Shown here piece after piece: positions 1-32,000 of a stretch of DNA of 32,000 nt (the first letter of the stretch is position 1; every line of letters starts with the position of its first letter). Origin of the DNA: Candidatus Saccharimonas sp. (GTDB lineage: Bacteria > Patescibacteriota > Saccharimonadia > Saccharimonadales > Saccharimonadaceae); the NCBI GenBank assembly GCA_015256915.3, contig CP076101.2:540001-572000 (forward strand). Reading direction: 5' to 3'. The notes beneath the pieces are model-generated. The model saw only the letters and a program-made list of their open reading frames with translations, ran no database searches and had not been told where the DNA came from. The translations under genes were made by a program, and so were the position numbers.

Positions 1-1175
1 CCCTAAAACAAGCAAACGAAGCGCTTTCTCGTGGCTCACGTGTTTTAGCTTTGGCTTTCTCAAAAGAAAAAATAGATAATAAAAATATTAAAATACCTGC
101 AAAAATATCAAAACTCGCCTTAATAGAAATCACCGACCCAATTCGCGAAGGAGCACGCGAGACACTCGAATACCTACGCTCGCAAAAAATTGATCTCAAA
201 ATTATCTCTGGCGATAATCCGATAACAGTTTCAAATATCGCAAGAAAAGCTGGTTTTGATAATTTCGAAAGTTATGTTGATTGCTCAAAAGTAAAAGATT
301 CTGAGCTCAAAAAAATCGCTGTAGGAACTGCAATTTTTGGTCGAGTTTCACCGCACCAAAAAAAGCTAATTGTCCAAACTCTTAAAAAAGCGGGCCGCAC
401 GACTGCAATGACTGGCGATGGCGTGAATGATATTTTAGCCCTACGCGAGGCGGATTGTTCAATTGTGATGGCTGAGGGTGATCCCGCAACGAGACAAATC
501 GCAAACCTCGTCTTGCTCAATTCTGATTTTAATGATTTACCAGAAATTCTTTTTGAAGGGCGCCGAGTCGTAAATAATATTGCTAGAATTGCACCAATTT
601 TCTTGATTAAAACGATCTATTCATTCATTTTGGCGATTATCTGTATTTTAAGTGCTCTATTATTTGATAAAAATCTTCTCTTAATTTTCCCGTTCATTCC
701 AATTCAAGTTACATTGATCGACCAGTTTGTTGAGGGCTTCCCACCTTTTGTTCTCACCTTCGAGAAGAATATTCAACCCGTTGAAAAAGATTTTATTAAA
801 AAATCACTCCTAATGGCCTTACCTAGTGCGTTAATGGTGGTATTCTCGGTTATTTTCGTAAGAATTTGGGGTTCACTTAATGGCTGGATTCCTCAAGAAA
901 TTTCGACAGTCTTGTATTATTTACTCGGTTCAATCGGAATGCTCTCAGTAATTCGCGCTTGCCTACCACTTAATTTCTGGAGAATCCTTCTTATTATTTG
1001 GTCAATCAGTGCGTTTATAGTAACCGCAATTCTCTTTAGACCACTGATTGAAATCGGCGTGCTTTCAGGGCGTACTTTCGAACTTTACGCAATACTAATG
1101 ATATTTTTTGCCATAATTTTTATTGTGATTGAGTGGTTGAAAAAACGTTCGAAAAGTGATACAATTAAAGCATAA
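1..1175 (+). CDS. P-type cation-transporting ATPase, C-terminal part (5' end upstream of window)
   Basis: The frame is open from nt 3, and the M at 51 in the ORF track is an internal TTG. The hinge motif MTGDGVNDILALREAD (GDGxND) is followed by several hydrophobic helices. Confidence 0.85.
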   Translation, partial: LKQANEALSRGSRVLALAFSKEKIDNKNIKIPAKISKLALIEITDPIREGARETLEYLRSQKIDLKIISGDNPITVSNIARKAGFDNFESYVDCSKVKDSELKKIAVGTAIFGRVSPHQKKLIVQTLKKAGRTTAMTGDGVNDILALREADCSIVMAEGDPATRQIANLVLLNSDFNDLPEILFEGRRVVNNIARIAPIFLIKTIYSFILAIICILSALLFDKNLLLIFPFIPIQVTLIDQFVEGFPPFVLTFEKNIQPVEKDFIKKSLLMALPSALMVVFSVIFVRIWGSLNGWIPQEISTVLYYLLGSIGMLSVIRACLPLNFWRILLIIWSISAFIVTAILFRPLIEIGVLSGRTFELYAILMIFFAIIFIVIEWLKKRSKSDTIKA

Positions 1176-1200
1176 ACTGAATAAAAGGAGTATCTGAAAA

Positions 1201-1554
1201 ATGACAATAGACCAACAGTTTGTTGAATATATCGTTAAGAATTTAGTTGAAAATCCAGAAGACGTAAAAGTTGAACGCACAATTGACGAGAAAGGTGTTT
1301 TATTAACTTTGACCGTGAATAAAGAAGACCTAGGCCGAATTATCGGTCGCCGTGGAGCAACTGCACAAAGCCTTCGTGCGCTTCTTCGAGCTCTGGCACT
1401 AAAAAATAATGCTCATTATAATCTAAAAATTAGCGATAGTAAAGAAAAAACTGAAGCTGTGGAAAATTCAACAGATACACCTGTGGAAAACACAAACACT
1501 TTCGCAGAACAAACTCGAAAAGAGCTTGCAGAATTAGACGACATTGCGTTATAA
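1201..1554 (+). CDS. KH-domain RNA-binding protein (YlqC/KhpA-like) with a low-complexity C-terminal tail
   Basis: Contains VKNLVENPEDVKVE...LTVNKEDLGRIIGRRGATAQSLRALL, including the GxxG KH motif. An AAAAGGAG Shine-Dalgarno sequence lies 8 nt upstream. Confidence 0.8.
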   Translation: MTIDQQFVEYIVKNLVENPEDVKVERTIDEKGVLLTLTVNKEDLGRIIGRRGATAQSLRALLRALALKNNAHYNLKISDSKEKTEAVENSTDTPVENTNTFAEQTRKELAELDDIAL

Positions 1555-1560
1555 TATAAA

Positions 1561-1608
1561 CAGTTCAGTTCGAAATCTGTTGTGGAGTTTTAGATTTCGA
1601 AAGAACTG
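1561..1608. other. Long imperfect stem-loop (6 bp + internal loop + 10 bp) with a TTCGAA in each arm
   Basis: cagttcAGttcgaaatct (1561-1578) pairs with agatttcgaaAgaactg (1592-1608). No T-run follows, so it is not a canonical terminator. Confidence 0.5.
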
Positions 1609-1676
1609 CGGAAAAAACAAAAAAGTCAAAGCTCTATGCGAGCAAACTAAGGAAAGTTTGAGAGCTTATACTTGTT

Positions 1677-1710
1677 AAAAATCTAGCCATAATATCTTGG
1701 CTGGATTTTT
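1677..1710 (+). terminator. Rho-independent terminator candidate after the KH gene
   Basis: aaaatctagcca / tggctggatttt stem with one G.T pair, followed by a T-run. Confidence 0.5.
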
Positions 1711-1759
1711 AGTTTGTCTATTTTGCAAAAAAATCTAAAAAATGGTAAAATAAGTTAAT

Positions 1760-2401
1760 ATGAAAATTCAAGTAATCACTCTCTTCCCTGAAATGTTCGA
1801 ACCAGTTTTAAATAATGCAATGATGTGGAAGGCACAAAATCAAAATGTAGTTTCTTTTGAAATTATTAATTTACGTGATTTTGGTATTGGGATGCGCAAG
1901 CAAGTTGATGACATTCCCTATGGTGGAGGAGATGGAATGCTCTTAAAACCAGAACCTCTTTTCGAAGCAGTCGAGTTTGCAAAAAAAAATTCACCAAATG
2001 CAAAAATTATTGCAATGACTCCAAGTGAAAATGTCTGGAATCAAGAAAAAGCCCAAGAAAAAGCTAATTCTGGCGAAGATTTAATTATTTTATGTGGACG
2101 ATATGAAGGGTTTGATTCACGAATTTTCAAAATTGTTGATGAAAAAATAAGTATTGGTAAATTTATTTTAACTGGTGGTGAAATTCCTGCAATGGCAATA
2201 ATCGATAGTGTAGTCCGCCTGATTCCCGGCGTACTTGGTGGCGAAAAATCAGCTGAAATTGAAAGCTATTCAGATGGTGATAATCTGGAATTTCCACAAT
2301 TTACAAGACCGGCAGATTTCCGCGGAATGAAAGTTCCAGAAGTTTTATTGAGCGGACATCACGCTAAAATCGAAGAATGGCGAAAAAAATATTCAAAATA
2401 G
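1760..2401 (+). CDS. trmD: tRNA (guanine37-N1)-methyltransferase
   Basis: Has the typical TrmD N-terminus MKIQVITLFPEMFEP and the ILCGRYEGFDSR and SIGKFILTGGE motifs. Length is 213 aa. Confidence 0.9.
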   Translation: MKIQVITLFPEMFEPVLNNAMMWKAQNQNVVSFEIINLRDFGIGMRKQVDDIPYGGGDGMLLKPEPLFEAVEFAKKNSPNAKIIAMTPSENVWNQEKAQEKANSGEDLIILCGRYEGFDSRIFKIVDEKISIGKFILTGGEIPAMAIIDSVVRLIPGVLGGEKSAEIESYSDGDNLEFPQFTRPADFRGMKVPEVLLSGHHAKIEEWRKKYSK

Positions 2402-2411
2402 ATTTTTTTGC

Positions 2412-2440
2412 TTGATTTTTCGAAATATATGCGTTATAAT
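2412..2440 (+). promoter_or_regulatory. Sigma70-type promoter for tRNA-Pro
   Basis: TTGATT, a 17-nt spacer, then TATAAT, ending 23 nt before the tRNA 5' end. Confidence 0.55.
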
Positions 2441-2463
2441 GGTTGTATATTTCGAGTTAATCT

Positions 2464-2540
2464 CGGGGTGTGGCGCAGTTGGCTAGCGCGCGCGGTTTGG
2501 GACCGTGAGGTCGAAGGTTCGAGTCCTTTCACCCCGACCA
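2464..2540 (+). tRNA. tRNA-Pro (anticodon UGG), CCA encoded
   Basis: Manual cloverleaf: acceptor CGGGGTG/CACCCCG, D stem GCGC, anticodon stem CGCGG/CCGTG with loop TTTGGGA, T arm GAAGG-TTCGAGT-CCTTT. Confidence 0.9.
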
Positions 2541-2600
2541 ATACAAGATTGTTACAGGCATAACTTTGACGAGTTATGTCTTTTTTATTATGGAATAATA

Positions 2601-2629
2601 TTGACTTTCTAAAAAACTTATGCTATAAT
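2601..2629 (+). promoter_or_regulatory. Near-consensus promoter upstream of the carbamate kinase pseudogene
   Basis: TTGACT, a 17-nt spacer, then TATAAT. A 41-nt leader ends in AAAAGGAAAAATAAATG. Confidence 0.6.
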
Positions 2630-2670
2630 TTACTTTATATTATTAAATTAAAAACAAAAAGGAAAAATAA

Positions 2671-3602
2671 ATGTCAAAAATTGTTGTTGCACTTGGTGGC
2701 AATGCTTTACAAAAAAAAGGTGAATTAACTGCAAAGATTCAAGAAGAAGTTGCAAAAGAAACAGTTCAAAAGCTTATTCCTCTCATTAAAGACGGTCATG
2801 AACTAGTGATTGTTCATGGTAATGGCCCACAGGTTGGAAATCTAATCCTTCATGAAGAAGCCGGAAATTCACCTTCAACCCCTGCTATGCCCCTTCATGT
2901 TAGCGTGGGAATGACTCAGGGAATGATTGGCTATTGGATCCAAAAATCCTTAAAAGAAGAACTTTCAAAAAACGGAATTTCGAAAAATGCTACAACCATT
3001 TATTACCAAGTGGAAGTTTCGAAAAATGACCCAAGCTTTCAAAAACCCAACCAAACCAATTGGCCCATTCTATTCAGAAGAAGAAGCTAAAGGTTGCAGC
3101 CAAAAAGGCTATGTCGTTAAAGAAGATTCTGGTCGCGGATGGCGGCGAGTTGTTCCTTCACCAAAACCAATCATATTCTTGAGAGTGATGCGATTATTGA
3201 CTTTATGAAAACTGGCGCAATTGTTATAGCGGCCGGCGGTGGTGGAATTCCAGTGATTTCAAATGGAGAAAATTCTTTCGAAGGAGTTGACGCTGTGATT
3301 GATAAAGACTTCGCCGCAGGGCTTTGGCTGAAAAATTAACGCCGATACACTATTAATTTTTAGCAGTGGTCGATAACATTATGATTAATTATGGAAAAAG
3401 AAAATCAACAAGCTTTGGGTGTAATTTCAACAGAAGAAACGAAATATAAACAACGAAAACCCAATTCGGTGCAGGCTCAATGTTGCCAAAAGGTCAAGCT
3501 TCATAAATTCACAAAAACTGGTGGAAAAGCCCAGTTGTTACGACCTCGAAAATACTCAGGATGCAAATTTCGAAAAATCTTGGAACAGTAATTACACAAT
3601 AA
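2671..3602 (+). pseudogene. arcC: Carbamate kinase, disrupted by at least 9 frame changes
   Basis: Carbamate kinase motifs are recognisable but spread over all three frames: [106 protein letters not shown]. The frame order I traced (start coordinate mod 3) is 1,2,1,0,2,1,0,1,2,0. The length of 932 nt is not a multiple of 3. Confidence 0.85.
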
Positions 3603-3607
3603 AACCT

Positions 3608-3639
3608 AAAATTAGCCTTTCGAAAGATCGGCTAATTTT
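3608..3639. terminator. Bidirectional-looking terminator hairpin between convergent arcC and pyk
   Basis: Perfect 10-bp stem aaaattagcc/ggctaatttt. The loop tttcgaaagatc carries TTTCGAAA, and a T-run follows. Confidence 0.65.
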
Positions 3640-3701
3640 ATTTGATTAATATAAATAAAAATAAGCGTTCCTACTTGAAACGCGCATCTTGTTTTATAAA
3701 A

Positions 3702-5140
3702 TTAGATTGTTCGAACGCGAATTGTATCGGTTCCACCAACTAATCCAGGTTGACGGCCAGAAACAATAGCAACTGTTGCTTTTCTTTGACACCAAATGTT
3801 CCATTGGCACCAGTTCTTTTGCAAGTTCAAGACCAGCAAATTCACCATCTGGGCGGATGAAGCTTCGGGTTGCATAATTCAAAACAAGTTGTTGGGCAAC
3901 ACGATTGGAGCTTGTTACAGCATAAATTGGAAGTGCTGGGCGGTTTTTGCGGCGGCGATTGCAGCAGTTTGTCCAGATTTAGTTTCAACGATTAAAGCAT
4001 CTGCATTAATTTGCTCAAGCTCAACTGCAGCAAGAGAAATTGCATTTAAACTTCATCTTCACCGCGCTCAACAATATCATCAATTGGTGAAACTGCTGCA
4101 AGGTACTCTTGAGTATACATAATAACATCACGCATAGCTTTCACAGTTTCTTCTGGGTATTTACCAGTCGCAGACTCATCTGAAAGCATTACAACATCAG
4201 CACCTTGAATTACAGCGTTAGCAACGTCAGAAGCTTCTTGCACGAGGTTGTGGTTAATATCAACTTCATTGAACCCATTGTTTGAGTTGCAACAATTGAA
4301 ATTTTTCCATGCTTCCGACAAGAGCAACAGCTTTTCGTTGGATAATTAGCACACAACTTCTGGAGCAACTTCATAGCCATGCGTCACCACGACAATCATT
4401 ACACCATCCGCTGCGAGAACGATTTTCAAGTTCTTCATCAGAAACGGCTTTTTGGTTTCAATTTAGCAATAACTTGTGCTTCGCGCTATTATTGCTTGCA
4501 AGAAGCTGACGAACATTTTCAGCTATCTTCGGCAGTCTGCACAAAAGCTCATTGCTACGTAATCGATATCTTGAGTTACCGAATTCAAGATCGCATGTCT
4601 TTTTCAGTAATAACATCACCGCCAAAGTCTGTATCTGGCAAGTTTAATTCCTTTTCGGCTCATCAAAGTTCCTTTATTCAAAACTCGCAATTTAATTGCA
4701 GTATTTGAAGGAACTTCAATAACTTCTGTTCGAACTTTTTTGTAACATCGAAAATATAAACAGGCTCACCAACTTTAACCTTTTCAGCCAAATTGTATTG
4801 AACTGGCAAATTAGCCGAACCATGTATGTTGCTGGTGCATAGTCAAGAACCAATTCATCGCCTTCATTAACTTCAAAACGATTATCCACAATATCTCCAA
4901 GACGAATCTTTGGACCTTGCAAATCTTGCAAAATTGCAATTTCGCGACCTAGCTTTTTGCTAATTTCGCAGCGAACTGCTTTAATTTTTTTGCAGCATGC
5001 TCTTCATATGAACCGTGAAGAAATTCAATCGAGCTCCATTGATTCCTGCGTTGATAAGTTTTTCGATCATTTTCAGGGCTGTCGCTTGCTGGGCCGATCG
5101 TAGCCAAAATTTTTGTTCGTTTGTAAACATTATTTTCCAC
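3702..5140 (-). pseudogene. pyk: Pyruvate kinase, disrupted by many frame changes (at least 10 traced in the first ~800 nt)
   Basis: Pyruvate kinase segments lie in different frames: [180 protein letters not shown]. It has a GTG start with an AAGGG Shine-Dalgarno sequence and a TGgTATAAT box upstream. The length of 1439 nt is not a multiple of 3. Confidence 0.85.
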
Positions 5141-5188
5141 TCTTTACCCTTATATATTATACCACTTTTATTTTTATTAAAAAAGGGG

Positions 5189-5217
5189 TTGCATTATTTT
5201 TTAAAGTTTGCTATAAT
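5189..5217 (+). promoter_or_regulatory. Promoter for tRNA-Glu
   Basis: TTGCAT, a 17-nt spacer, then TATAAT, 42 nt upstream of the tRNA. Confidence 0.5.
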
Positions 5218-5259
5218 TAAAACGAGTTGTTGCTTTATCACCCCAAAGCTCAGCTCAAT

Positions 5260-5334
5260 GGTCTTATCGTCTAACGGTTAGGACACCAGGTTTTCATCCT
5301 GGCAATCCGGGTTCGATTCCCGGTAAGATCACCA
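5260..5334 (+). tRNA. tRNA-Glu (anticodon UUC), CCA encoded
   Basis: Acceptor GGTCTTA/TAAGATC, anticodon stem CCAGG/CCTGG with loop TTTTCAT, T arm CCGGG-TTCGATT-CCCGG. Confidence 0.9.
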
Positions 5335-5492
5335 AAAAGAAATTATTTAAAATCACTTTTCGAAAGATTAGTGATTTTTTTAGCTTATCTTAATCTTAAA
5401 AAATATATTCCTTAATATTTATTAAAAATTCTAAATGGAAAAATATATCTTGTAAAAATAAATTTACGTCAATGCATTATGAAAAATAAAAA

Positions 5493-5533
5493 AGCCAAGA
5501 TAAAGTGTTTAAAATAAACATTTTATCTTGGCT
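5493..5533 (-). terminator. Long hairpin terminator abutting and overlapping the 3' end of tRNA-Gln
   Basis: agccaagataaaGtgttta-aaa-taaacaTtttatcttggct forms about 19 bp with one G.T pair. On the minus strand it is followed by a T-run. Confidence 0.65.
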
Positions 5534-5603
5534 GGGATGGAGGGATTCGAACCCCCGAATGCCAGGACCAAAACCTGGTGCCTTACCACTTGGCGACATC
5601 CCA
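5529..5603 (-). tRNA. tRNA-Gln (anticodon UUG), CCA encoded
   Basis: The reverse complement is TGGGATG..CCAGG-TTTTGGT-CCTGG..GGGGG-TTCGAAT-CCCTC..CATCCCA-G-CCA. Confidence 0.9.
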
Positions 5604-5645
5604 ATACCCAACCATTTTACCAAATTATAATCTAAAAATCAAGTA

Positions 5646-6386
5646 CTATCGTGGACATTTTTTAGCAATTTCACGCGCATTTCTGGTGATTTGATCAAGC
5701 AAATTTGCTTTTCGAATATTTTCATAAAGAACTTTAGGCATTTCATAATCTTTATTTTTCAAAGCTTGTTCAATTAAAAATAACGAAATTTTTGGATTTT
5801 TTGGTAAAATTGAGCCGTGTAAATATGTTCCAATCACATTTTTATAAATCGTACCCTCAAAATTTCCGTCAGGTGTATTTCCTGCACCACTTTTAACGCG
5901 CGCCAATGGCTCATTCTCTTTCGAAAGATAAGTTTTTCCGCTATGGTTTTCATAACCAATAATTTCACCAAATTGATCAGATTCTTCAACGATATTGCCA
6001 ATCATTCTCTGTTCACCGCCAACCGTTTTAACACCTTTAAATAAGCAAATACCCTTAATTTTATTGCCATTTACAGTTTCAAAAGAATCACCAAAAAGCT
6101 GGTATAATCCACAAACCATTAGCATTGGTACACCTTTTTTGGCAAGCTTCCGTAAATTTGGTGCAATTTTCAGCAGATCATCTTGAATTTGATTCTGACC
6201 CGAATCCTGACCACCACCGCCAATAATAATATCAACATCATCAGGAAAATCATCTCCAGGATTATATTCAACAATTTCGTATTTTATTCCACGAAGCTCC
6301 ATCTGTTTTTTTAACGCTAAAATATTGCCATAATCACCGTAAATATTCATATTTTTAGCATAAAGCCACAAAATTTTTAAATTCAT
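5646..6386 (-). CDS. gatD: Lipid II isoglutaminyl synthase, glutaminase subunit (CobQ-type GATase)
   Basis: A 246-aa CobB/CobQ-like glutamine amidotransferase (VCGLYQLFG, TYLHGSILPKNP). Its start overlaps the stop of the upstream murT by 4 nt. Confidence 0.8.
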   Translation of the reverse strand: MNLKILWLYAKNMNIYGDYGNILALKKQMELRGIKYEIVEYNPGDDFPDDVDIIIGGGGQDSGQNQIQDDLLKIAPNLRKLAKKGVPMLMVCGLYQLFGDSFETVNGNKIKGICLFKGVKTVGGEQRMIGNIVEESDQFGEIIGYENHSGKTYLSKENEPLARVKSGAGNTPDGNFEGTIYKNVIGTYLHGSILPKNPKISLFLIEQALKNKDYEMPKVLYENIRKANLLDQITRNAREIAKKCPR

Positions 6387-23274: not shown

Positions 23275-23283
23275 CAAATAAAA

Positions 23284-24570: not shown

Positions 24571-24589
24571 ATTTTAAGTTTAGCACAAA

Positions 24590-24616: not shown

Positions 24617-24786
24617 TTCTATATTTTTAGTATCATATTTCCAAAATATCTCTAAAAATATTTGACTTTTTATCTTTTACATACAGTTACAGAATATTAA
24701 TAAACTCAAAAATAGATAAAGATAAAGCGATACTCTGCAGACTATAACTCTTCTAAGCCCGCAAAAATACAGGCTTTTCTTTTAGT

Positions 24787-25515
24787 CTACTTTGATAATT
24801 CTAAGAATTTAGCTTTAATATCTTCCAAAAGTTTTCTTGCTCGCACACGCACTTCAATATCTTTATAGTTAAATTCAACATCTTGGTGCATAATTTGGTT
24901 AATAATTCGCGCCGTGTTTCGAAAATCATCATTCAAAATAAAGTGAAAATATGGTACTTCGAGCGCCTGCTCTAATGAAGAAATCGCTTCTGGCAAACGT
25001 TTTTCGAAATCTTTTTCGAATTCTTCTGCATTTGAATATCGGTTTGCAAAACGTGCTCGCCAAGTTTCGAAATCTGGTGGCAAAATAAAAACCGCAACCA
25101 CTCGCTCGCTCATTTTTTTATATTCTGCAATTCCTTGTATATCAATATCCGTTACGGAAATCTGCCCGTTTTGGTTCGCTTTTTCAATCTCTACAACACT
25201 TGTACCATAAATCCTATCGTGAACAAATTTCGCCTCAATAAACTCACGTTTATTAAGCATTTCTTCAGCCTTTTCAATCGAAATAAAATTGTAGTCAATA
25301 CCATTTTGTTCAATTTTGCCATTATTTTCACGAGGCTGGCGCGTTGTGTGGCTGACAATATCACGATATTCTTCATTTTTTAAAAGATGTTTCTTGGTTG
25401 TATCTTTTCCTGCGCCAGAAATTCCCGCAAGTAGTAAAATGCGAGAATTTTCAACTAAAGTAATAGCTTCAGGTGGCGTTTGATAGTTTTTTACAAGAAA
25501 TTCAAGGTTATTCAT
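24787..25515 (-). CDS. gmk: Guanylate kinase family protein (with N- and C-terminal extensions)
   Basis: P-loop GISGAGKDT, SHTTRQPRENNGKIEQNGIDYNFIS, YGTS, and DIDIQG. Length is 242 aa. Confidence 0.75.
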   Translation of the reverse strand: MNNLEFLVKNYQTPPEAITLVENSRILLLAGISGAGKDTTKKHLLKNEEYRDIVSHTTRQPRENNGKIEQNGIDYNFISIEKAEEMLNKREFIEAKFVHDRIYGTSVVEIEKANQNGQISVTDIDIQGIAEYKKMSERVVAVFILPPDFETWRARFANRYSNAEEFEKDFEKRLPEAISSLEQALEVPYFHFILNDDFRNTARIINQIMHQDVEFNYKDIEVRVRARKLLEDIKAKFLELSK

Positions 25516-25527
25516 ATTAAAATTATA

Positions 25528-26106
25528 CTATATTTTCTGAATTTCGTCAAAAATTTCCTGCTCAGAAATTTCATTTAATTTTCGGTTTTTTATAATTTTC
25601 GAAATAATTTTAGCTGCAAAAAATCCAAGAAAATTCTGCTCAATTTTATTTTCACCATTCATATATTTATCAAAATCATAATTTTCAGCATTTTTAGAAA
25701 ATTCCAAGAAATCTTTTTTAATCTCTGGTGAAAGTTTAATATTTTTCGAAATTCCAGCCAAATAAAATCCTCCACCAACCGCCAAGATATCCATTAAAAA
25801 TTCGTTTTTAAAATTTAATTTCCGCAAATTTTCACTCGTAACAGCTCGAATTATCGCGTTTCGAATATCAATATTGCGAATATCTCTAAAAACTTCGCAA
25901 ATCTCAAAAGCAGCATGATTTTGCCTTCTATAAAAATCAATTCCATCATCAGAATAAGTCCAAATTTTTCGACAAAAAACCAAATCGTAACCTTTATTTT
26001 CACCAAATTGTGGTCGTAAAATTCGTAACGCTTGCCTATAACTTGAGCGCAATTTCTTGCGGAAAACTTTATTATTTTTAAAATTTCCCAAAATTATTTT
26101 TCGCAT
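25528..26106 (-). CDS. Hypothetical protein (192 aa)
   Basis: ORF whose 5' end overlaps the upstream gene by 13 nt and which ends 12 nt before gmk. No motif is recognised. Confidence 0.45.
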   Translation of the reverse strand: MRKIILGNFKNNKVFRKKLRSSYRQALRILRPQFGENKGYDLVFCRKIWTYSDDGIDFYRRQNHAAFEICEVFRDIRNIDIRNAIIRAVTSENLRKLNFKNEFLMDILAVGGGFYLAGISKNIKLSPEIKKDFLEFSKNAENYDFDKYMNGENKIEQNFLGFFAAKIISKIIKNRKLNEISEQEIFDEIQKI

Positions 26107-26777
26107 TTTAAAATCTCCTTTTTGGCAAATTTAATAAATTCCATTGTTGGAATTCGTACAGCTTCGATCGGTTTAATCTTATGAAATTTGCAATATTCGC
26201 CAACCAAAAAATCACCAATTTTATAGCCCAAATTGTGCGGAAAATCAGGATTTTCACCATTAAAATTATATAGCCATGCATTATAATTATAGTCTTTTTT
26301 ATTTTCGCAAATATCAATTGCTTCAGCAAGCCGCTTTAAGATCATCGCCTTTTCGTTTTCGAAATAGTAAAACGGCTTGTCTTTCCAGAAAATGCCAGTT
26401 TCAGTTCTAACTTGTTTCTCAAAACTTACCGCTAAACCCTCAGTAACAATATCCACCATTAACCAAAAATTACGTTCATAAAAACCTCGAAATACATGAT
26501 TTAATTCGTGAAAAATATTCTGAACAAAGTCTGCTTCAGAAAAATCATCTTCAAAGATTACAAACTCCATAAAATTATCTTTAAGCTGAGCAATACCCCA
26601 AACTTTTTGGTTTTTACTTATCTCTGGGTTAGCCTTTTGAGCATGTGAAAAATAAATATCTACATCACTCATTTTTGGAAAATATTGCAAAAAAGCATTA
26701 TTATATTTTTCAAAATAATTATGAATTTTAGTTTTTAGCGAATTACTTATATCAGAATTAAAAATTAAATTAAACAT
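26094..26777 (-). CDS. Predicted Zn-dependent peptidase (DUF2268-like; HExxH)
   Basis: FHELNHVFRG (HExxH) followed by VTEGLAVSF. I prefer the ATG at 26777; the ORF track starts at a TTG at 26837. Confidence 0.55.
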   Translation of the reverse strand: MFNLIFNSDISNSLKTKIHNYFEKYNNAFLQYFPKMSDVDIYFSHAQKANPEISKNQKVWGIAQLKDNFMEFVIFEDDFSEADFVQNIFHELNHVFRGFYERNFWLMVDIVTEGLAVSFEKQVRTETGIFWKDKPFYYFENEKAMILKRLAEAIDICENKKDYNYNAWLYNFNGENPDFPHNLGYKIGDFLVGEYCKFHKIKPIEAVRIPTMEFIKFAKKEILKCEK

Positions 26778-26796
26778 GTTTTTACCTATAAAAATA

Positions 26797-26810
26797 GGGG
26801 CTTTTGCCCC
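26797..26810 (-). terminator. Short GC hairpin terminator/attenuator between the 28-aa ORF and the peptidase gene
   Basis: Minus strand: GGGGC-AAAA-GCCCC followed by TATTTTTAT. Confidence 0.45.
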
Positions 26811-26871
26811 AGATACGGAAAGAGTTTCAACTTTCAATTTTTACTGTACTTATAAAGCAGCTAAACTTATT

Positions 26872-26958
26872 CTAATTGCGACGACCGCCACCATTAGTTC
26901 CGAAACCAGAACCTTGAGTAGGGTTTCCGCCATTATTGCCATTATTTCCTTTAGCCAT
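26872..26958 (-). CDS. Possible 28-aa Gly/Asn-rich peptide (may instead be part of a non-coding RNA)
   Basis: MAKGNNGNNGGNPTQGSGFGTNGGGRRN. It has only a weak Shine-Dalgarno sequence (GGAAAG, 11 nt upstream) and lies in a transcript bounded by a perfect promoter and a terminator. Confidence 0.3.
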   Translation of the reverse strand: MAKGNNGNNGGNPTQGSGFGTNGGGRRN

Positions 26959-27086
26959 AACAGTACCAACTTTCCATAAAAAATTCAAATGAACTCCGGT
27001 AAAAAATGTAATTTTCTAATTTTATTTCACAACAATATCAGAAAAACTACGCCTAAGCACCTACCAGTATTACTTAAGTATTTACG

Positions 27087-27115
27087 ATTATAACAAATAG
27101 CTATAGTAATGTCAA
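27087..27115 (-). promoter_or_regulatory. Perfect-consensus sigma70 promoter for the 28-aa ORF transcript
   Basis: Minus strand: TTGACA (27115-27110), a 17-nt spacer, then TATAAT (27092-27087). Confidence 0.7.
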
Positions 27116-27132
27116 ATAAATTTTTAAACAAT

Positions 27133-27163
27133 AAAAAGCTCTCGAAATCTTCGAAAGCTTTTT
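27133..27163. terminator. Terminator after yebC
   Basis: aaaaagctCtcgaa-atc-ttcgaAagcttttt has 13 bp with one mismatch and is flanked by A/T runs. Confidence 0.65.
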
Positions 27164-27168
27164 ATTGT

Positions 27169-27879
27169 TTAATCTATTTTAGCGTTCGTATGAACATTCA
27201 CCACGTCATCAACGTCGTCAAGTGCATCCATCAATTTTTCAACTTTCGCACGAGTTTCGTCGTCAGTGATTTCAACTTCCATATTTGGCACGTATTGAAG
27301 TTCGGCTTCTTTTACAGTTAAACCTTTTTCAATTAGTTCTTTTCGAACTTTCATTAAATCTTTTTGGTCGGTATAAACCATAATTTCGCCATCTTCTTCA
27401 ACCGCGTCTTCTGCACCAGCATCAAGAATTTCAAGTAGTGCGTCTTCGCCCGTTGCTTCAACCAAAATTACACCTTTGCGAGTAAACTGAAACATCACAC
27501 TACCCGCGTCAGCAATTCGGCCACCATTTTTTACTAAAGCAGTCTTAACTTCAGGGAAAGTTCGGTTGCGGTTGTCGGTTGCGGTTTCAATAATCAAACC
27601 AATTCCATTTGGGCCATAACCTTCGTAAGTAATTTCCTCAAGTATTGCCGAGTTTTTATCTGCTGCGCGAGCAATTGCACGCTCAATATTTGCATTTGGC
27701 ATATTCACAGCGCGAGCTTTTTCAATTGCCAGCGCCAAACTTGGGTTCATGTCTGGATCAGCACCACCACGAGCTGCAATTGCAATTTGATTTCCAATTC
27801 GTGTAAAAATTGCACCCCGTTTTGCATCATTTACACCTTTCTGTCGTTTAATTTTTGACCATTTATTATGACCAGCCAT
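27169..27879 (-). CDS. yebC: YebC/PmpR family DNA-binding regulator
   Basis: MAGHNKWSKIKRQKG...AIEKARAVNMP. It has an AAGGAGA Shine-Dalgarno sequence and a TTGAAT-17-TAAAAT promoter at 27915-27943. Confidence 0.9.
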   Translation of the reverse strand: MAGHNKWSKIKRQKGVNDAKRGAIFTRIGNQIAIAARGGADPDMNPSLALAIEKARAVNMPNANIERAIARAADKNSAILEEITYEGYGPNGIGLIIETATDNRNRTFPEVKTALVKNGGRIADAGSVMFQFTRKGVILVEATGEDALLEILDAGAEDAVEEDGEIMVYTDQKDLMKVRKELIEKGLTVKEAELQYVPNMEVEITDDETRAKVEKLMDALDDVDDVVNVHTNAKID

Positions 27880-27957
27880 AATTCTCCTTAATTTTTATCT
27901 GTAAATCTATATTAATTTTACCATTTTTTGCTTGAAAATTCAAATTTCGAAAAATAA

Positions 27958-27985
27958 AAACGCCCATTTTAACTTTTGAGCGTTT
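27958..27985 (-). terminator. Terminator after the flavoprotein gene
   Basis: aaacgc/gcgttt stem. On the minus strand it is followed by TTATTTTT. Confidence 0.45.
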
Positions 27986-27989
27986 AGTT

Positions 27990-29363
27990 TTATTTAATTT
28001 TATGGGCTGCCACACGAATAATCTCGCTCCAGCTTAAAAATGGTTGTGGGATTTCGGCTAAATCGTGTGCTGTCATTTCATTTCGAATCGCCAAAGAAAT
28101 CTGCGAAATCAAGTTTATTGCATCTGGCGATACAATACTTCCGCCAATAATCTTTCCCTTCCTATCACAAATAATTTTAGCAAATCCACTACTGAAATTC
28201 TCGACATTACTTTTTGCAATTAAATTAAGTGGCGCAATTGCAGTTTTATATTTTAAATCTCTCTTCAAACAATCATCCTCAGTTAAACCAACCGTGGCAA
28301 TTTCTGGCCAAGTTGAAATTGTACGAGGCGAAAGCGGAAACTTAACCTCAATTTTTGAGCGTGAATGTAAAATATTATAAGCAACCGTTCGGCTTTCAAG
28401 GAGAATCTCTGCCGTTTGAGCTTGTGGATTAACCACGCCACCAACCGCAAAAATATGCTTCATAGAAGTTTGCGAAAATTCATTTACAGCAATTCCATCT
28501 TTCGAAAAATCAATATGGGCATTTTCTAAGCCTATGTCTGTATTAGGTATTCTTTCACCTACAACCAGAATTTCATCAACTCGCACAAATTTCTCGGTTC
28601 CGCCTCGTTGAAAGATCACTCGCTTCATCAAGCCGTCTTTTTGCACTGCTACCACTCGAGTTTGCGGTAAAACATAAACATGACTTTCTTCAACTAAAAT
28701 ATTTTCAATAGTAATTCCAACTTCTTCGTCTTCTTTTGGCAAAAGTCGTGCTGAAACTTCACTGATGTAAACTTTCGTACCAAAAATAGCCAAAATTTGA
28801 GCAATTTCAACCGCCTCAGCTCCACCACCAACAATAAAAATGCTTTTAGGTGGGCGAGCAATATCAAAAATTGTTTTCGGCGTATAGTATCGCACATTTT
28901 CAATATTTTTAATATCTGGAATTGAGATTTTCGAACCAGTTGCAATCAAGAAATTCTTTGCTGAATAATGCTTTTGATTAATCGAAATCTCATTCGGAGT
29001 TAAAAATCTGGCTTCACCGCGAAAAGTTTTAATCCCCATACTTTCGAAAAATTTTTGATTATCATGAGCACCGGTTCGTTCAATCACATTTTTTTTCCAA
29101 GCAGAAATTATCGGAAAATTATAAGTTAAATTTGCCGAGCGTAGACCCATTTTTTCAGCCTTTTTCGCCTCAAAAAAAGCTTTTTTAACCTTCGAAATTG
29201 CCGCCCGTGGAATATCACTATAATTTGGTGATTCACCACCAAAAAGATCATTTTCAACAATCGCAACATTTAGCCCGGATTTTGCTGCAATATTTGCTGC
29301 TGCCGAACCACCCGCTCCACTTCCAAGAACAATTAAATCAAAATCAAATTTTCTTTTAGCCAT
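27990..29363 (-). CDS. Class-I pyridine nucleotide-disulfide oxidoreductase homologue (Lpd/GR-like fold) lacking the redox-active CxxxxC
   Basis: FAD site LGSGAGGSAAA, NAD site VGGGAEAVEIA, and a dimerisation-domain C-terminus. The position of GGxCxNxGCIP reads GGESPNYSDIP (29214-29231), and the C-terminal HPT(L)xE position reads QPFLSWSE. Confidence 0.7.
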   Translation of the reverse strand: MAKRKFDFDLIVLGSGAGGSAAANIAAKSGLNVAIVENDLFGGESPNYSDIPRAAISKVKKAFFEAKKAEKMGLRSANLTYNFPIISAWKKNVIERTGAHDNQKFFESMGIKTFRGEARFLTPNEISINQKHYSAKNFLIATGSKISIPDIKNIENVRYYTPKTIFDIARPPKSIFIVGGGAEAVEIAQILAIFGTKVYISEVSARLLPKEDEEVGITIENILVEESHVYVLPQTRVVAVQKDGLMKRVIFQRGGTEKFVRVDEILVVGERIPNTDIGLENAHIDFSKDGIAVNEFSQTSMKHIFAVGGVVNPQAQTAEILLESRTVAYNILHSRSKIEVKFPLSPRTISTWPEIATVGLTEDDCLKRDLKYKTAIAPLNLIAKSNVENFSSGFAKIICDRKGKIIGGSIVSPDAINLISQISLAIRNEMTAHDLAEIPQPFLSWSEIIRVAAHKIK

Positions 29364-29373
29364 TTTTCACTCC

Positions 29374-29643
29374 TTAAATTATGCTCTTGAAATTTTTATA
29401 AATATACGCTGCCTCCGGATGGACTTTCTGTAGAATTTCTCCGGTTTGTCTTCGAATATCACCACTTGTAATTTCTGGTTTGTTTCTTTGCCAATCTGCA
29501 AATTCGAGAAGAGTTTTTCGAACAAATTCATTACTTTGCCCTTCTGGAGATCTAACAATTAAGAAAGTTTCACTCAAGGATTTTTGTAATTTTTTATAAT
29601 CAAATTTCTCAACTTCTCCATCAGATTTTACAACCATTCTCAT
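29374..29643 (-). CDS. Stand-alone ATP-cone domain protein (89 aa)
   Basis: VVKSDGEVEKFDYKKLQKSL...EITSGDIRRQTGEILQKVHPEAAYIY matches the ATP-cone pattern. Confidence 0.6.
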   Translation of the reverse strand: MRMVVKSDGEVEKFDYKKLQKSLSETFLIVRSPEGQSNEFVRKTLLEFADWQRNKPEITSGDIRRQTGEILQKVHPEAAYIYKNFKSII

Positions 29644-30377
29644 AGCGAAACCCCTAAGAATTCTGGCATAAAAATTACAACACCAGTTATAAATGCTAAA
29701 ATTATCATTCCCAGACCTGCTGAAAATTGCATAAAACGCTTATTCTTATTCCGCCAAGCTTGAATTTCTGAAATTGGATGTCCACCAGAAATCATACAAG
29801 CAATACTAAAAATTGGTAAATTAGAAATTAAAACATAAATTACTAAAATAGCAAATTGAAGGGCCGGTGAAACACGTGAGGCTAAAATTGCCGAAATCGC
29901 CAAAGATGCAAAATAAAACAAGATTTCACTCAAAACACTCACAATTCCTAGCGAAAATGCTTCAGCCGAATGAACAGTTTTACTTGCTCGCTCGTTAAGA
30001 AACTTTGCCATTGAACGAGGAATCCAAAGTTCCGTACTATTTTGTATGTTTTTGCCTCTTCGATAATAAAAAATCCAAGTTGAGATCCCAGCAGCAACTA
30101 AAATACCAGCCAAGACTGCCCAAGCTACTTTCGAAAATGCAATATTATAAAATATTCCAGCAAAATATGCAAAAGTTGAAAAAATAAGAATAGTTGCAAA
30201 AACTGATCCAAAAACTAAAGACATAGATAACTTTGTTAATTGTAAATGCGACTTTTTCTTGCTTAAAGTGTGCCCACTCAAAAGTGTTAGAACGCTAATA
30301 CTCAAATGAAAACTAGCATGCACCATTGCCGCTAAGATTACTACTAATAAAATCATCCGAATTTCCATAAGCTTCAT
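29640..30377 (-). CDS. Hypothetical integral membrane protein (245 aa, about 6 TM helices)
   Basis: Hydrophobic profile, with a 4-nt ATGA overlap with the ATP-cone gene. Confidence 0.5.
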   Translation of the reverse strand: MKLMEIRMILLVVILAAMVHASFHLSISVLTLLSGHTLSKKKSHLQLTKLSMSLVFGSVFATILIFSTFAYFAGIFYNIAFSKVAWAVLAGILVAAGISTWIFYYRRGKNIQNSTELWIPRSMAKFLNERASKTVHSAEAFSLGIVSVLSEILFYFASLAISAILASRVSPALQFAILVIYVLISNLPIFSIACMISGGHPISEIQAWRNKNKRFMQFSAGLGMIILAFITGVVIFMPEFLGVSL

Positions 30378-30441
30378 TTAAATTATATTATAAGCACAAG
30401 CGAAAATCAAGAAAAATGTTTAAGTTTTTTCGAAAAAAGTC

Positions 30442-30470
30442 TTGACTTTTATATTTTTATATGTTATTAT
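30442..30470 (+). promoter_or_regulatory. Promoter for the 40-aa ORF
   Basis: TTGACT, a 17-nt spacer, then TATTAT. Confidence 0.55.
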
Positions 30471-30509
30471 AAATAACGTAATATTATTTAAAAACAAAAA
30501 GGAAAATAA

Positions 30510-30632
30510 ATGGCACGACACGAACGAATGTCCTCATGGGATAGACACCGAACTAAAAAAGAACTCCGAAACTTCATTGATGCAAGAATTTCACGATTCA
30601 ATGAATTTGATGAGTTCGAAGATTTAGTCTAA
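30510..30632 (+). CDS. Small charged protein (40 aa; below the ORF-track cutoff)
   Basis: MARHERMSSWDRHRTKKELRNFIDARISRFNEFDEFEDLV. It has an AAAAGGAAAA Shine-Dalgarno context, a promoter, and a terminator. I prefer it over the overlapping TTG-started track ORF at 30442-30627, which would begin inside the -35 box. Confidence 0.45.
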   Translation: MARHERMSSWDRHRTKKELRNFIDARISRFNEFDEFEDLV

Positions 30633-30639
30633 GAATATG

Positions 30640-30666
30640 AAGCTCGCAAAATTAGCGAGCTTTTCT
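30640..30666 (+). terminator. Terminator after the 40-aa ORF
   Basis: aagctcgc-aaaatta-gcgagctt followed by a T-run. Confidence 0.65.
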
Positions 30667-30707
30667 CTTGAAAAAAGTTTTTCAATGTGCTAAAATATAA
30701 ACATTAT

Positions 30708-30784
30708 GGTAGCGTAGCTCAGTTGGTTAGAGCGTAGGACTCATAAGCCTAAGGTCGCAGGTTCAATCCCCGCCGCTACTACCA
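30708..30784 (+). tRNA. tRNA with CAU anticodon (elongator Met or lysidine-Ile2), CCA encoded
   Basis: GGTAGCG-TA-GCTC-AGTTGGTTA-GAGC..loop CTCATAA..TTCAATC..CGCTACT-A-CCA. It has a G1.U72 pair and mismatches in the anticodon and T stems. A TTGAAA-17-TAAAAT promoter lies at 30668-30696. Confidence 0.8.
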
Positions 30785-30796
30785 GAAATTATATAG

Positions 30797-30830
30797 AAAA
30801 TCGTTGCAAATTTTGTAACGATTTTTATTT
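30797..30830 (+). terminator. Terminator after the CAU tRNA
   Basis: aaaatcgtt/aacgatttt 9-bp stem followed by a T-run. Confidence 0.6.
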
Positions 30831-30885
30831 TTATAAATAAAAATAACCTTCCATTTTTGAAAAGTTATTTTTTGAAATAATTTCT

Positions 30886-30963
30886 TGGTTGCGGGAGTAG
30901 GATTTGAACCTACGACCTCTTGGTTATGAGCCAAGCGAGCTGACCAGACTGCTCCATCCCGCG
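30886..30963 (-). tRNA. Initiator tRNA-fMet (CAU), CCA encoded
   Basis: The reverse complement is CGCGGGA-TG-GAGC..CTTGG-CTCATAA-CCAAG..GTAGG-TTCAAAT-CCTAC-TCCCGCA-A-CCA. It has the C1xA72 mismatch typical of bacterial initiators and high identity to the canonical fMet body. Confidence 0.85.
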
Positions 30964-30976
30964 ATATCTGCTTTAT

Positions 30977-31005
30977 ATTTTATCACGCAGATATTTAAAA
31001 GTCAA
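30977..31005 (-). promoter_or_regulatory. Promoter for tRNA-fMet
   Basis: Minus strand: TTGACT, a 17-nt spacer, then TAAAAT (with TGA upstream), inside the shared 20-nt block. Confidence 0.55.
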
Positions 31006-31015
31006 GGGTTTTTGG

Positions 31016-31456
31016 CTATTTCGTTGCCTTTTGAGCATTTCCACCAAAAATAAAGTTAATCCATTGTGTAAAATTTGAAGGTTTTGGCGTTTTAGTTTGC
31101 TCTTTCTTTTGTTCTTCTGGGTATTTCGAAAGAATCAAAACATGTTCACCTGGCATTGCAAGACCAAGTTTTTCACGTACAGCAAGCTCTTGGTATTCAG
31201 AACTTTTCAGATATTTTTGCTCATATTCAAGTGTTTTATAGCTAATTTCATCAATTAAAGCCTGGCGCTGTTTGAGTTCTAGCTTTTTTTGAATTGAATA
31301 ATTTTTTTCCATCGCCGCAATATTCCCCCAAACCCAAATTATCGAGATAAAAATAACACTGGCCATAACAATATTACTCAAAGTTAAAATATCGTTCGAA
31401 AAATAATATTTCGCACGGCGAGTTTTAGTTTTTAAATCGTTTAAGTTTAATTTCAC
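31016..31456 (-). CDS. Septum formation initiator family protein (FtsB/DivIC-like)
   Basis: One N-terminal TM helix, then a coiled coil, then AVREKLGLAMPGEHVLIL. It has a GTG start with a TGATAAAAT box 6 nt upstream. Confidence 0.6.
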   Translation of the reverse strand: MKLNLNDLKTKTRRAKYYFSNDILTLSNIVMASVIFISIIWVWGNIAAMEKNYSIQKKLELKQRQALIDEISYKTLEYEQKYLKSSEYQELAVREKLGLAMPGEHVLILSKYPEEQKKEQTKTPKPSNFTQWINFIFGGNAQKATK

Positions 31457-31496
31457 TATTTAATTTTATCACATTTTCTGATATAATTAAATAGTC

Positions 31497-31572
31497 GGGG
31501 GATTAGCTCAGCGGTTAGAGCAGTCGTCTCATACACGATTGGTCGCTGGTTCGAACCCAGCATCCCCTACCA
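31497..31572 (+). tRNA. tRNA with CAU anticodon (elongator Met or lysidine-Ile2), CCA encoded
   Basis: GGGGGAT-TA-GCTC-AGCGGTTA-GAGC-A-GTCGT-CTCATAC-ACGAT..GCTGG-TTCGAAC-CCAGC-ATCCCCT-A-CCA, with a G1.U72 pair. Confidence 0.8.
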
Positions 31573-31614
31573 AAATCGCCTAATTGGCGTTTTTATTTTT
31601 ATTTTGAATTTAAC

Positions 31615-31647
31615 AAAACCGCCCCATCTGAATGAGAGGCGGTTTTT
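31615..31647. terminator. Bidirectional terminator hairpin
   Basis: aaaaccgcc/ggcggtttt 9-bp stem with a 14-nt loop, flanked by A and T runs. Confidence 0.65.
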
Positions 31648-31656
31648 ATAAATTGA

Positions 31657-31863
31657 TTATTTCTTGCGAGAAACTGTCAAGAAGCCGTTTCGTGGATTTT
31701 CTTTTACAATTCGGTCTTCTGGAAGGTCGCAAGGCTCACCCTTATCGTTCTTTTCTTTTTTAGCAAAGAAGTAAATTGTTTGTGGTTTTCCGCCACGCAA
31801 AGTTACTTCACTTTTGTGCAAATAATATGTAATTCCTTTTGAATTTGTTTGACTATAAGCCAT
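31657..31863 (-). CDS. Small conserved-looking hypothetical protein (68 aa from the preferred start)
   Basis: MAYSQTNSKGITYYLHKSEVTLRGGKPQTIYFFAKKE... An AAAGGA Shine-Dalgarno sequence precedes the internal ATG at 31863. The ORF track starts at 31899. Confidence 0.5.
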   Translation of the reverse strand: MAYSQTNSKGITYYLHKSEVTLRGGKPQTIYFFAKKEKNDKGEPCDLPEDRIVKENPRNGFLTVSRKK

Positions 31864-32000
31864 TTCTATCCTTTCATTACTACTGTTATATATTTTCATT
31901 GTATATCAGTTTTAAAGTGGTGTCAAGCCTTTTTACACTTTTGGTGTATATTTTTTCAAAATAAGCTTAAGAATTATAGTTGTTATCATTTTTATTATAA

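Follow-up and report, generated by a model that had tools for sequence, protein, structure and literature searches.

The palindrome TTTCGAAA, built on the core TTCGAA, is present in large excess throughout a 32,000-base stretch of the chromosome of a human-oral member of the Saccharibacteria (contig CP076101.2, positions 540,001 to 572,000; 34.6% G+C), to which we refer here as the window. Judging by its sequence properties, the word appears to be a lineage-specific highly iterated palindrome (HIP), of the same kind as cyanobacterial HIP1 and the DNA uptake sequences. Two features of the excess can be stated plainly. Namely, neither protein sequence nor codon usage accounts for it, and it is confined to a single clade, in which it arose after the split from relatives that avoid the very same word. 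The clade in question is G6 of the human-oral Saccharibacteria (TM7), and the window comes from its JB002 species, an organism with a closed genome of 638 kb that is found in hundreds of oral metagenome assemblies.

Abundance and DNA-level origin of the palindrome

The window contains 104 copies of TTCGAA, as opposed to 10.7 expected from base composition alone (order 0), and 50 copies of the full 8-mer, as opposed to 1.1, the latter corresponding to 1,560 copies per Mb. Both counts had been given in the original prediction, made from the letters of this DNA, and were exact on recount; its rough expectations of about 11 and about 1 at some 35% G+C agree with the values computed here. On average, there is about one TTCGAA per 300 bases, in genes and intergenic DNA alike, and, roughly extrapolated, the complete genome would hold some 2,000 copies of TTCGAA and some 1,000 of TTTCGAAA. 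Raising the order of the Markov model increases the expected number of TTCGAA to 22, 39 and 56 (orders 1, 2 and 3, respectively), and the order 3 expectation for the 8-mer is 11, against the 50 observed. Only the maximal-order model, with an expectation of 93, comes near the observed 104, because it is built from TTCGA and TCGAA, which are equally inflated.

TTCGAA is the top 6-mer of the window by z-score and, like the HIPs, the most over-represented word of its length. Among the 256 words of the form NNCGNN it occurs 104 times and the runner-up only 16 times, and what is in excess is therefore the palindrome as a whole, rather than CpG or TCGA. The one-off control words stay at expectation and behave as had been claimed, with 25 copies of ATCGAA+TTCGAT, 13 of GTCGAA+TTCGAC and 25 of CTCGAA+TTCGAG (approximately 24, 13 and 25 in the earlier count), again pointing to the complete palindrome. 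The 104 sites, which are palindromic and hence strandless, start at positions 264, 1077, 1148, 1569, 1596, 1796, 1961, 2419, 2979, 3018, 3277, 3569, 3619, 3710, 4729, 5359, 5546, 5711, 5920, 6411, 6424, 6730, 6990, 7119, 7131, 7416, 7431, 7548, 7981, 8526, 8861, 8903, 8991, 8999, 9367, 9692, 9843, 10275, 10763, 11151, 11945, 12146, 12389, 12871, 13459, 13467, 13498, 13821, 13959, 14201, 14392, 15511, 15540, 16032, 16093, 16716, 16731, 16999, 17888, 18156, 18171, 18394, 18418, 18829, 18869, 19714, 20397, 20437, 20450, 21050, 21064, 21386, 22069, 22307, 22697, 22725, 23438, 23627, 23941, 24284, 24918, 25003, 25015, 25066, 25598, 25745, 25860, 26358, 27150, 27342, 27946, 28082, 28501, 28930, 29043, 29191, 29451, 29517, 30130, 30429, 30615, 31125, 31395 and 31550.

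The bases that flank the core matter in a graded fashion. Namely, sites with both correct flanks (T..A) number 50 as compared to 1.15 expected (44x), those with one correct flank 25 as compared to 2.3 (T..B) and 16 as compared to 2.4 (V..A), i.e. 7-11x, and those with neither (V..B) 13 as compared to 4.8 (2.7x). An A or a C at position -1 is disfavoured, and no conservation is seen past ±2 nt. This grading makes the 8-mer the optimal form of the word, and the lack of conservation farther out means that the sites do not represent copies of any longer element. The 50 full 8-mers, spanning positions 263..31131, start at 263, 1595, 2418, 2978, 3017, 3568, 3618, 5358, 5919, 6410, 7118, 7130, 7980, 8860, 8902, 9691, 9842, 10762, 11944, 12145, 12388, 12870, 13466, 13958, 15510, 15539, 16031, 16998, 18155, 18393, 18417, 19713, 20449, 21049, 21063, 21385, 22306, 22696, 24917, 25002, 25065, 25597, 25744, 26357, 27945, 28500, 29042, 30129, 30428 and 31124.

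What places the origin of the excess at the level of DNA, as the original prediction had it, is its behaviour with respect to coding sequence. Coding sequences hold 81 sites (3.29 per kb) and the remaining DNA 23 (3.12 per kb), and within genes all three codon phases are used, as had been claimed: 22 sites are read as TTC|GAA, 18 as nTT|CGA|A and 41 as nnT|TCG|AA. The peptides quoted as examples, KEFSKEFSK in MurT, IFEPSN in ComEC and VFRKS in the SBP, are all found. The synonymous shuffle that had been proposed as a check, in which codons are permuted within each gene so that the protein, its dipeptides and the per-gene codon usage are kept (1,000 trials), does not reproduce the excess: it yields 26.4±4.4 TTCGAA in genes (maximum 41) as compared to the 81 observed (z≈12), and 8.1±2.7 copies of the 8-mer as compared to 41, with every codon phase lying 2.3-4x above this null. 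Among nine control words, TTCGAT, ATCGAA, TTCGAG, CTCGAA, GAATTC and TTTAAA give |z| < 1.3, and the remaining three, TTGCAA, AAGCTT and TCGA, give z of +1.7, +3.2 and +6.3, the last of these being itself contained in the motif.

Codon choice follows the word closely. In particular, Ser is encoded by TCG in 41 of 67 motif-completing contexts (8-15% elsewhere), Arg by CGA in 18 of 23 (27-39% elsewhere), and Phe-Glu by TTC-GAA in 22 of 49, where TTC makes up only 19% of Phe codons. It had been claimed that the motif forces the use of both CGA and TCG. This holds for much of the TCG usage, with 41 of 99 uses falling within TTCGAA, but not for CGA, where the figure is 18 of 113. CGA is the commonest Arg codon in the coding sequences of the window (113 of 327) and still accounts for 95 of 304 outside the motif; this is unusual at 35% G+C, and the palindrome does not account for it.

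Could the excess still be a by-product of AT-rich composition, of codon or dipeptide preference, of a dispersed repeat family or of tRNA-derived sequence? It is true that TTCGAA is a part of the tRNA T-loop and that AT-rich proteomes are rich in Lys, Phe, Glu and Ser. However, the shuffles, which keep both proteins and codon usage, give only one third of the observed number, and the comparison with unrelated AT-rich genomes, also proposed earlier, gives no excess either: other genomes of the Candidate Phyla Radiation (CPR) at 35-37% G+C (L073, L076, L077, L081, L083) have observed-to-expected (O/E) ratios for TTCGAA of 0-0.9. These two results rule out an artefact of codons, dipeptides or AT-richness. 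As for tRNAs, their T-loops account for 2 of the 104 sites, at 5546 in tRNA-Gln (5529..5603, - strand) and at 31550 in tRNA-Met (31497-31572), both an ordinary source that lies outside the phenomenon; together with the unconserved flanks, this rules out an origin in T-loops or a repeat element. We regard this entire family of explanations as refuted, with practically no probability left to it.

The sites are, moreover, spread more evenly than chance would have it. In 72 kb of non-redundant G6 sequence, with random placement as the null, the variance-to-mean ratio of TTCGAA counts in 2-kb bins is 0.47 (P = 0.005), and the largest gap is 1,119 bp, as compared to a random median of 1,621 (P = 0.009). 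At close range, ten pairs are found between 6411 and 25020, of which two are 8 bp apart (first sites 8991 and 13459) and eight are 12-15 bp apart (first sites 6411, 7119, 7416, 16716, 18156, 20437, 21050 and 25003). The latter exceed the 1.95 expected (P = 0.0012), and pairs 16-23 bp apart show no enrichment. Two of the 12-15 bp pairs are conserved in a G6 sister species (L007), and pairs at this spacing are able to base-pair as a short hairpin.

Larger hairpins carry the word as well, and the five intergenic ones named in the original prediction all fold as described there, with z between -2.6 and -9.4. Two of these are terminator-like and lie on the + strand. The one after the decayed arcC gene (3607..3640) has an 11-bp stem with TTTCGAAAGAT in the loop, followed by a T-run (-14.5 kcal/mol, z -4.7), and the one after tRNA-Glu (5349..5378) has a 9-bp stem with TTTTCGAAAGAT in the loop, followed by T7 (-10.9 kcal/mol, z -2.6). 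These two unrelated terminator hairpins have one loop sequence, TTTCGAAAGAT, in common (3618-3629 and 5358-5369). A 23-bp hairpin downstream of yebC (27124..27172, - strand) holds TTCGAA in the arm beside its apex (-27.2 kcal/mol, z -9.4), the stem of another (1561..1608, + strand) is formed by the paired copies at 1569 and 1596 (-18.7 kcal/mol, z -3.9), and in a long hairpin between dnaK and the phosphoketolase gene (20392..20459, - strand) the copies at 20397 and 20437 pair, with a third copy at 20450 (-23.1 kcal/mol, z -5.0).

Distribution, gain and turnover of sites

A DnaK-based scan with one genome per species returned 80 loci, including two G6 sister species (L006 and L007) and the six nearest relatives outside of G6 (L008-L013). 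The O/E ratio of TTCGAA is about 8-9.5 (2.7-3.5 sites per kb) in every G6 sequence, be it the window's strains, its ±10 kb flanks or the two sister species, and no non-G6 locus of the scan shows the excess. The comparison with sister genomes, which the original prediction had called for, is particularly telling in this respect. The next relative, L008, whose DnaK is 88% identical and whose G+C is 41.5%, holds 1 TTCGAA as compared to 4.7 expected, and L008-L013 taken together hold 9 as compared to approximately 32. Over 1.02 Mb of non-G6 Saccharibacteria the mean O/E is 0.81, with strong heterogeneity among loci (p = 3e-12), and ten of these loci have no TTCGAA at all, where 44.9 would be expected in total.

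TTCGAA is also the target hexamer of BstBI/AsuII-type Type II restriction-modification (RM) systems, and many non-G6 Saccharibacteria lack it altogether at loci expected to hold 4-7 copies, as is usual under restriction pressure. In the same vein, heterogeneous avoidance of this type is the usual mark of lineage-specific restriction systems, which the sequences of several relatives would thus appear to bear; RM systems are reported for all oral TM7 clades (PMC7739484). Under-representation is not what one sees in G6, where the O/E of approximately 9.5 is the opposite of avoidance. With relatives avoiding the word and G6 enriched in it, G6 has therefore left behind a background of avoidance and reached a nine-fold excess.

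Were the sites of G6 inherited and merely protected, or were they gained? Alignments with L006 (93% identity), L007 (84%) and L008 (75%) show that TTCGAA is retained at 48 of 57, 31 of 49 and 1 of 20 positions, respectively, as compared to a background hexamer retention of 0.70, 0.41 and 0.20. Since 19 of the 20 orthologous L008 positions lack the site, the sites were created de novo within G6, and protection of pre-existing sites from a drift towards AT is ruled out. The orthologous L008 states are often several positions away from TTCGAA. Within G6, retention thus stands at 84% as compared to 70%, and at 63% as compared to 41%, i.e. the word is conserved in the manner of a HIP, and this constitutes evidence of moderate strength. 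Divergence at third codon positions is lower inside the motif than outside, at 7.5% as compared to 14.5% for L006 (p = 0.049) and 23.3% as compared to 33.3% for L007 (p = 0.054), and none of 24 non-coding motif bases is changed in either comparison. The lowered substitution rate extends 1-3 nt past the hexamer and no further, and there is no trend with distance beyond 3 nt, which argues against a distance-dependent mutation rate of the kind that methyl-directed repair might give.

Individual sites come and go. Namely, 24 sites are common to the three G6 genomes, a further 15 are confined to one side of the deepest split and 14 to the other, and the youngest branches show 4 gains as compared to 8 losses. 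Turnover is near equilibrium, and what is kept is density, rather than particular positions. Motif codons fall at less conserved residues, with an identity to L008 of 0.60 as compared to 0.77, and to L010 of 0.43 as compared to 0.67, and 16 of 22 motif-encoded peptides differ from those of L008; uptake signal sequences (USS) likewise lie at less conserved residues, as reported by Findlay and Redfield (PMC2817400). In pseudogenes, considered as a neutral test bed, 7 of 8 sites are kept, which is close to the about 6 expected. A 2.1-kb accessory segment specific to strain L090 holds 3 TTCGAA, which is below the average, but not significantly so.

Several observations made along the way concern other words, other genomes and the neighbouring genes. 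In L076 (Nomurabacteria), TGATCA has 33 copies as compared to 7.4 expected, and among the Saccharibacteria GCTAGC has 26 as compared to 4.0 in L068 and 17 as compared to 4.6 in L032; these excesses are weaker than that of G6, and suggest that the phenomenon may recur in CPR bacteria. A scan of viral contigs for G6 phages bearing the word gave, among the matches listed, mostly chance matches and one outlier, L172 (IMGVR_UViG_3300020567_000331, 1-8401; 35.7% G+C), with 36 TTCGAA in 8.4 kb as compared to 2.9 expected, and 9 full 8-mers. The bias of this contig is asymmetric (rich in TCGAAA, CGAAAA and GAAAAA) and mostly encodes Phe-Glu-Lys. It also bears tRNA genes, TnpB fragments and HNH proteins, is dissimilar to G6 DNA, and comes from a viral collection and an IMG sample outside of the oral assemblies seen here. 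In the window itself, arcC (2671-3650, + strand) and pyk (3694-5140, - strand) carry about 50 small indels relative to three other strains, in which both genes are uninterrupted, at 311 and 476 aa. This segment has approximately 3% substitutions, near the strain background, and the neighbouring 9 kb are almost free of indels. Such an indel excess is unusual for natural decay and could reflect either genuine pseudogenes whose mutation spectrum is odd or an error in the local assembly. Lastly, the + strand of the window has 6,295 C and 4,773 G, and from 5.6 kb on nearly all genes lie on the - strand, an asymmetry consistent with a single replichore and co-oriented genes.

Known systems and candidate mechanisms

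The precedents offered in the original prediction remain pertinent, but the closest one, HIP1 (GCGATCGC) together with the other cyanobacterial HIPs, was not named there. These, too, are short palindromes with an 8-mer optimum on a 6-mer core, and their density and conservation are comparable (PMC4390886, PMC5861425): the 1,560 8-mers per Mb of G6 lie well within the HIP range of 300-2,700 per Mb (PMC4390886), with a zero-order O/E of approximately 44. Like HIP1, the G6 word occurs in all reading phases and in non-coding DNA, derives neither from codons nor from peptides, is conserved beyond codon conservation, is distributed non-randomly and evenly, and has single sites without an evident role at the level of genes; lineages likewise swap between words. 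A preprint reports a methylation-dependent effect of HIP1 on transformation (bioRxiv 10.1101/2024.09.10.611283). That said, the G6 word is not HIP1 proper. It is a different, AT-rich word, its host is not a cyanobacterium but a CPR epibiont with a 0.64-Mb genome, it is limited to one narrow clade whose nearest relatives avoid it, and, unlike for HIP1 with its DmtA and DmtC, no methyltransferase was found for it in the approximately 51 kb covered here.

The genomic signature of the USS of Pasteurellaceae and the DNA uptake sequences (DUS) of Neisseriaceae is present in G6 as well. In both cases there is about one copy per kb or more (PMC2817400, PMC3868556), a strong core with weaker flanks, placement in every frame and at poorly conserved residues with the peptides changed, copies in terminator hairpins, even spacing, and a word specific to a clade, as with the USS and DUS dialects. 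Like USS and DUS hosts, the G6 population recombines heavily and carries a comEC gene, albeit one that is frameshifted in the window strain. Preferential uptake and a receptor such as ComP, which have been established experimentally for USS and DUS, are putative in the case of the G6 word. In Campylobacter (CtsM, RAATTY), a methylated short palindrome serves as the mark of self in natural transformation. RAATTY is frequent simply owing to the AT-richness of the genome and is not known to be hyper-enriched, and methylation of TTCGAA in G6 is putative.

Homologous recombination between conspecific strains, which an uptake sequence would call for, is indeed seen. In two parts of the window (1-11550 and 20650-32000) compared with strains L086-L091, G6 exhibits strong mosaic recombination, with frequent exchange of short tracts: each of two four-strain alignments contains runs of all three mutually incompatible 2+2 patterns of sites (45/24/24 and 106/43/20), and divergence per kb among strains swings from 0 to 8%, with one block at 24%. 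This 1-kb block lies in the MFS transporter gene of L087 (approximately window 10000-11000), and suggests an allele imported from a distant lineage. Two other roles for the word can be set aside here. Namely, a recombination hot-spot or Chi-like function would not leave breakpoint intervals holding sites at the chance level, as they do, and a polar chromosome word, such as Chi or KOPS, is excluded by TTCGAA being its own reverse complement. The competence gene itself, comEC (DUF4131 and Competence domains; 8639..9937, - strand; 432 aa), contains TTCGAA at 8861, 8903, 8991, 8999, 9367, 9692 and 9843. Its presence in the window had been claimed correctly, but the gene is not intact in the window strain; in three other strains (L086-L088) it is, with 481 aa.

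The original prediction had offered three functional readings, an uptake or self-recognition signal, a methylation-linked motif and a site for a nucleoid protein, and all three are still candidates. Taken together, the observations lead us to favour, tentatively and with rather less than even confidence, a reading in which TTCGAA/TTTCGAAA marks self DNA, probably in methylated form, and is propagated by the exchange of DNA. In mechanistic terms, the word would be recognised by a G6 protein reading the entire chromosome, and its core would be the substrate of a methyltransferase with origins in a TTCGAA RM system of the kind that may have driven the avoidance in relatives. DNA tagged in this way would have an advantage in the uptake and recombination of DNA among G6 cells, and the tag would accumulate by molecular drive or selection, as has been proposed for USS and DUS and, recently, for HIP1. 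Circumstantial support for uptake or self-recognition may be seen in the mosaic recombination, the poorly conserved residues, the even spacing and the terminator locations, and circumstantial support for methylation in the word being a palindrome of Type II type and in relatives avoiding exactly TTCGAA. G6 bacteria are nucleotide-scavenging epibionts. A more specific proposal, which we consider possible but doubtful, is that G6 turned an avoided restriction target into a methylated self tag read by the competence machinery, by which conspecific DNA would be told from the food DNA of host or bystanders.

A number of results weigh against the self-tag reading. In the window strain, comEC is frameshifted by +1 at 8689, where a homopolymer goes from A7 to A8, and the Competence domain is cut at profile position 228 of 270; the extra A could represent phase variation, a strain-specific loss or a sequencing error. 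The boundaries of recombination tracts do not fall at sites, with 22 of 48 breakpoint intervals holding one as compared to 21.0 expected. USS and DUS are asymmetric 9-12-mers, whereas the G6 word is a perfect palindrome, and two oral TM7 clades lack recognisable pilins, according to a source whose clades could not be mapped to G6 (PMC7739484). The conservation tests are singly borderline (p about 0.05), and the under-dispersion hinges on the size of the bin, with P = 0.12 at 1 kb, 0.005 at 2 kb and 0.07 at 3 kb. What is more, no methyltransferase, nuclease, DNA receptor or obvious DNA-binding protein is seen in the window or its ±10 kb flanks (approximately 51 kb of the 638-kb genome), a span in which cognate genes of a BstBI/AsuII-type system are absent as well, and Pfam gives nothing relevant for the unassigned open reading frames. 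A motif scan of 1.3 Mb of related loci yielded a single plausible DNA methyltransferase, a 650-aa open reading frame of N6/N4 type with the motif DPPY, at 11181-13130 of L031. This locus belongs to Saccharibacteria outside of G6, and contains 0 TTCGAA as compared to 4.9 expected.

Among the alternatives, one that we judge rather unlikely assigns the word, as its target, to an orphan DNA methyltransferase in a housekeeping capacity (strand discrimination in mismatch repair, replication control or global regulation, for example) that has nothing to do with uptake; selection would then keep a site within reach of every stretch of the chromosome. Exactly such a role has been proposed for HIPs by Elhai (PMC4390886, section 3.4), and it would agree with a palindromic site of Type II type, with the even spacing, without gaps above 1.2 kb, that a site needed everywhere would show, and with the avoidance in relatives, which implies a TTCGAA-specific system circulating in the phylum, RM systems being reported for all oral TM7 clades. 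However, no methyltransferase was seen in the sequence covered, a graded preference for T/A flanks is unusual for a Type II enzyme, mismatch repair would get by with sites at a far lower density than one per 300 bp, and substitution rates are neither lower near sites past 3 nt nor rising with distance from them. The grading of the flanks is, on the other hand, what one would expect of a dimeric binder of an 8-bp palindrome, and this brings up an abundant nucleoid-associated protein specific to G6, with selection acting on chromosome packing. Such a protein, for which there would be room among the G6-specific core genes, half of them without known function (PMC8386444), would be in keeping with equal coding and non-coding densities and with even spacing on the kb scale, and it would best explain the excess of 12-15 bp pairs, a spacing that cooperative binding would favour. 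We nevertheless hold it to be improbable: no candidate protein was found in the same 51 kb, known nucleoid proteins seldom read a precise 6-8-mer, and the avoidance of TTCGAA in relatives is left unexplained.

The word could, finally, have no function whatsoever, if biased repair or gene conversion, for instance by a Vsr-type endonuclease together with a TTCGAA cytosine methyltransferase, neutrally turned near-matches into it. Most site differences between G6 genomes are indeed TTTGAA or TTCAAA, the CpG-transition neighbours, and continual re-conversion would also lower divergence at sites. However, the share of these two words in turnover matches the large size of their pool, which is not depleted, with 72 copies observed as compared to 72.3 in the synonymous shuffle, and which at 2.8 per kb is among the highest values for AT-rich CPR genomes (1.0-2.8 per kb in the others). 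A drive by Vsr-type short-patch repair can for this reason be rejected. Furthermore, with L008 states often several positions off, single T:G corrections cannot explain most sites, and under-dispersion is not expected of a purely mutational process. We consider neutral conversion in general to be very improbable.

Significance of the G6 word

It is rare for a short word to be hyper-abundant, and wherever this is known, a genome-wide process has come to light behind it. In the case of USS and DUS this was the sequence-specific uptake of DNA, and HIP1 continues to be debated after 30 years. In the literature that we searched there is no report of the TTCGAA word in Saccharibacteria, and the G6 genome paper mentions neither the word nor methylation, restriction or competence. 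What is new here is a HIP- or USS-like word found in another phylum, AT-rich and different in sequence, and limited to one narrow clade, and we have not seen a reversal from avoidance to excess of one and the same word described in that literature.

The G6 case is also a tractable one. The excess is young and does not extend beyond one clade, and in sister lineages the word is biased in the opposite direction. In addition, the genomes are very small and closed (JB001 is CP072208), and raw R9.4.1 nanopore reads, from which methylation of the word could be read, exist for JB001-JB003 (for example SRX10387815). In practical terms, the word provides a simple compositional marker for binning G6 contigs, and it may aid the design of donor DNA for Saccharibacteria genetics. 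If the proposal of a tag read by the competence machinery is true, G6 would provide the CPR with its first uptake or self-recognition sequence, and at the same time the first palindromic one known, and TTTCGAAA in donor DNA would offer a handle for transforming an uncultured lineage. More generally, the finding bears on the co-option of restriction-modification specificities, and on the means by which ultra-small epibionts, whose life depends on imported DNA, distinguish self from food.

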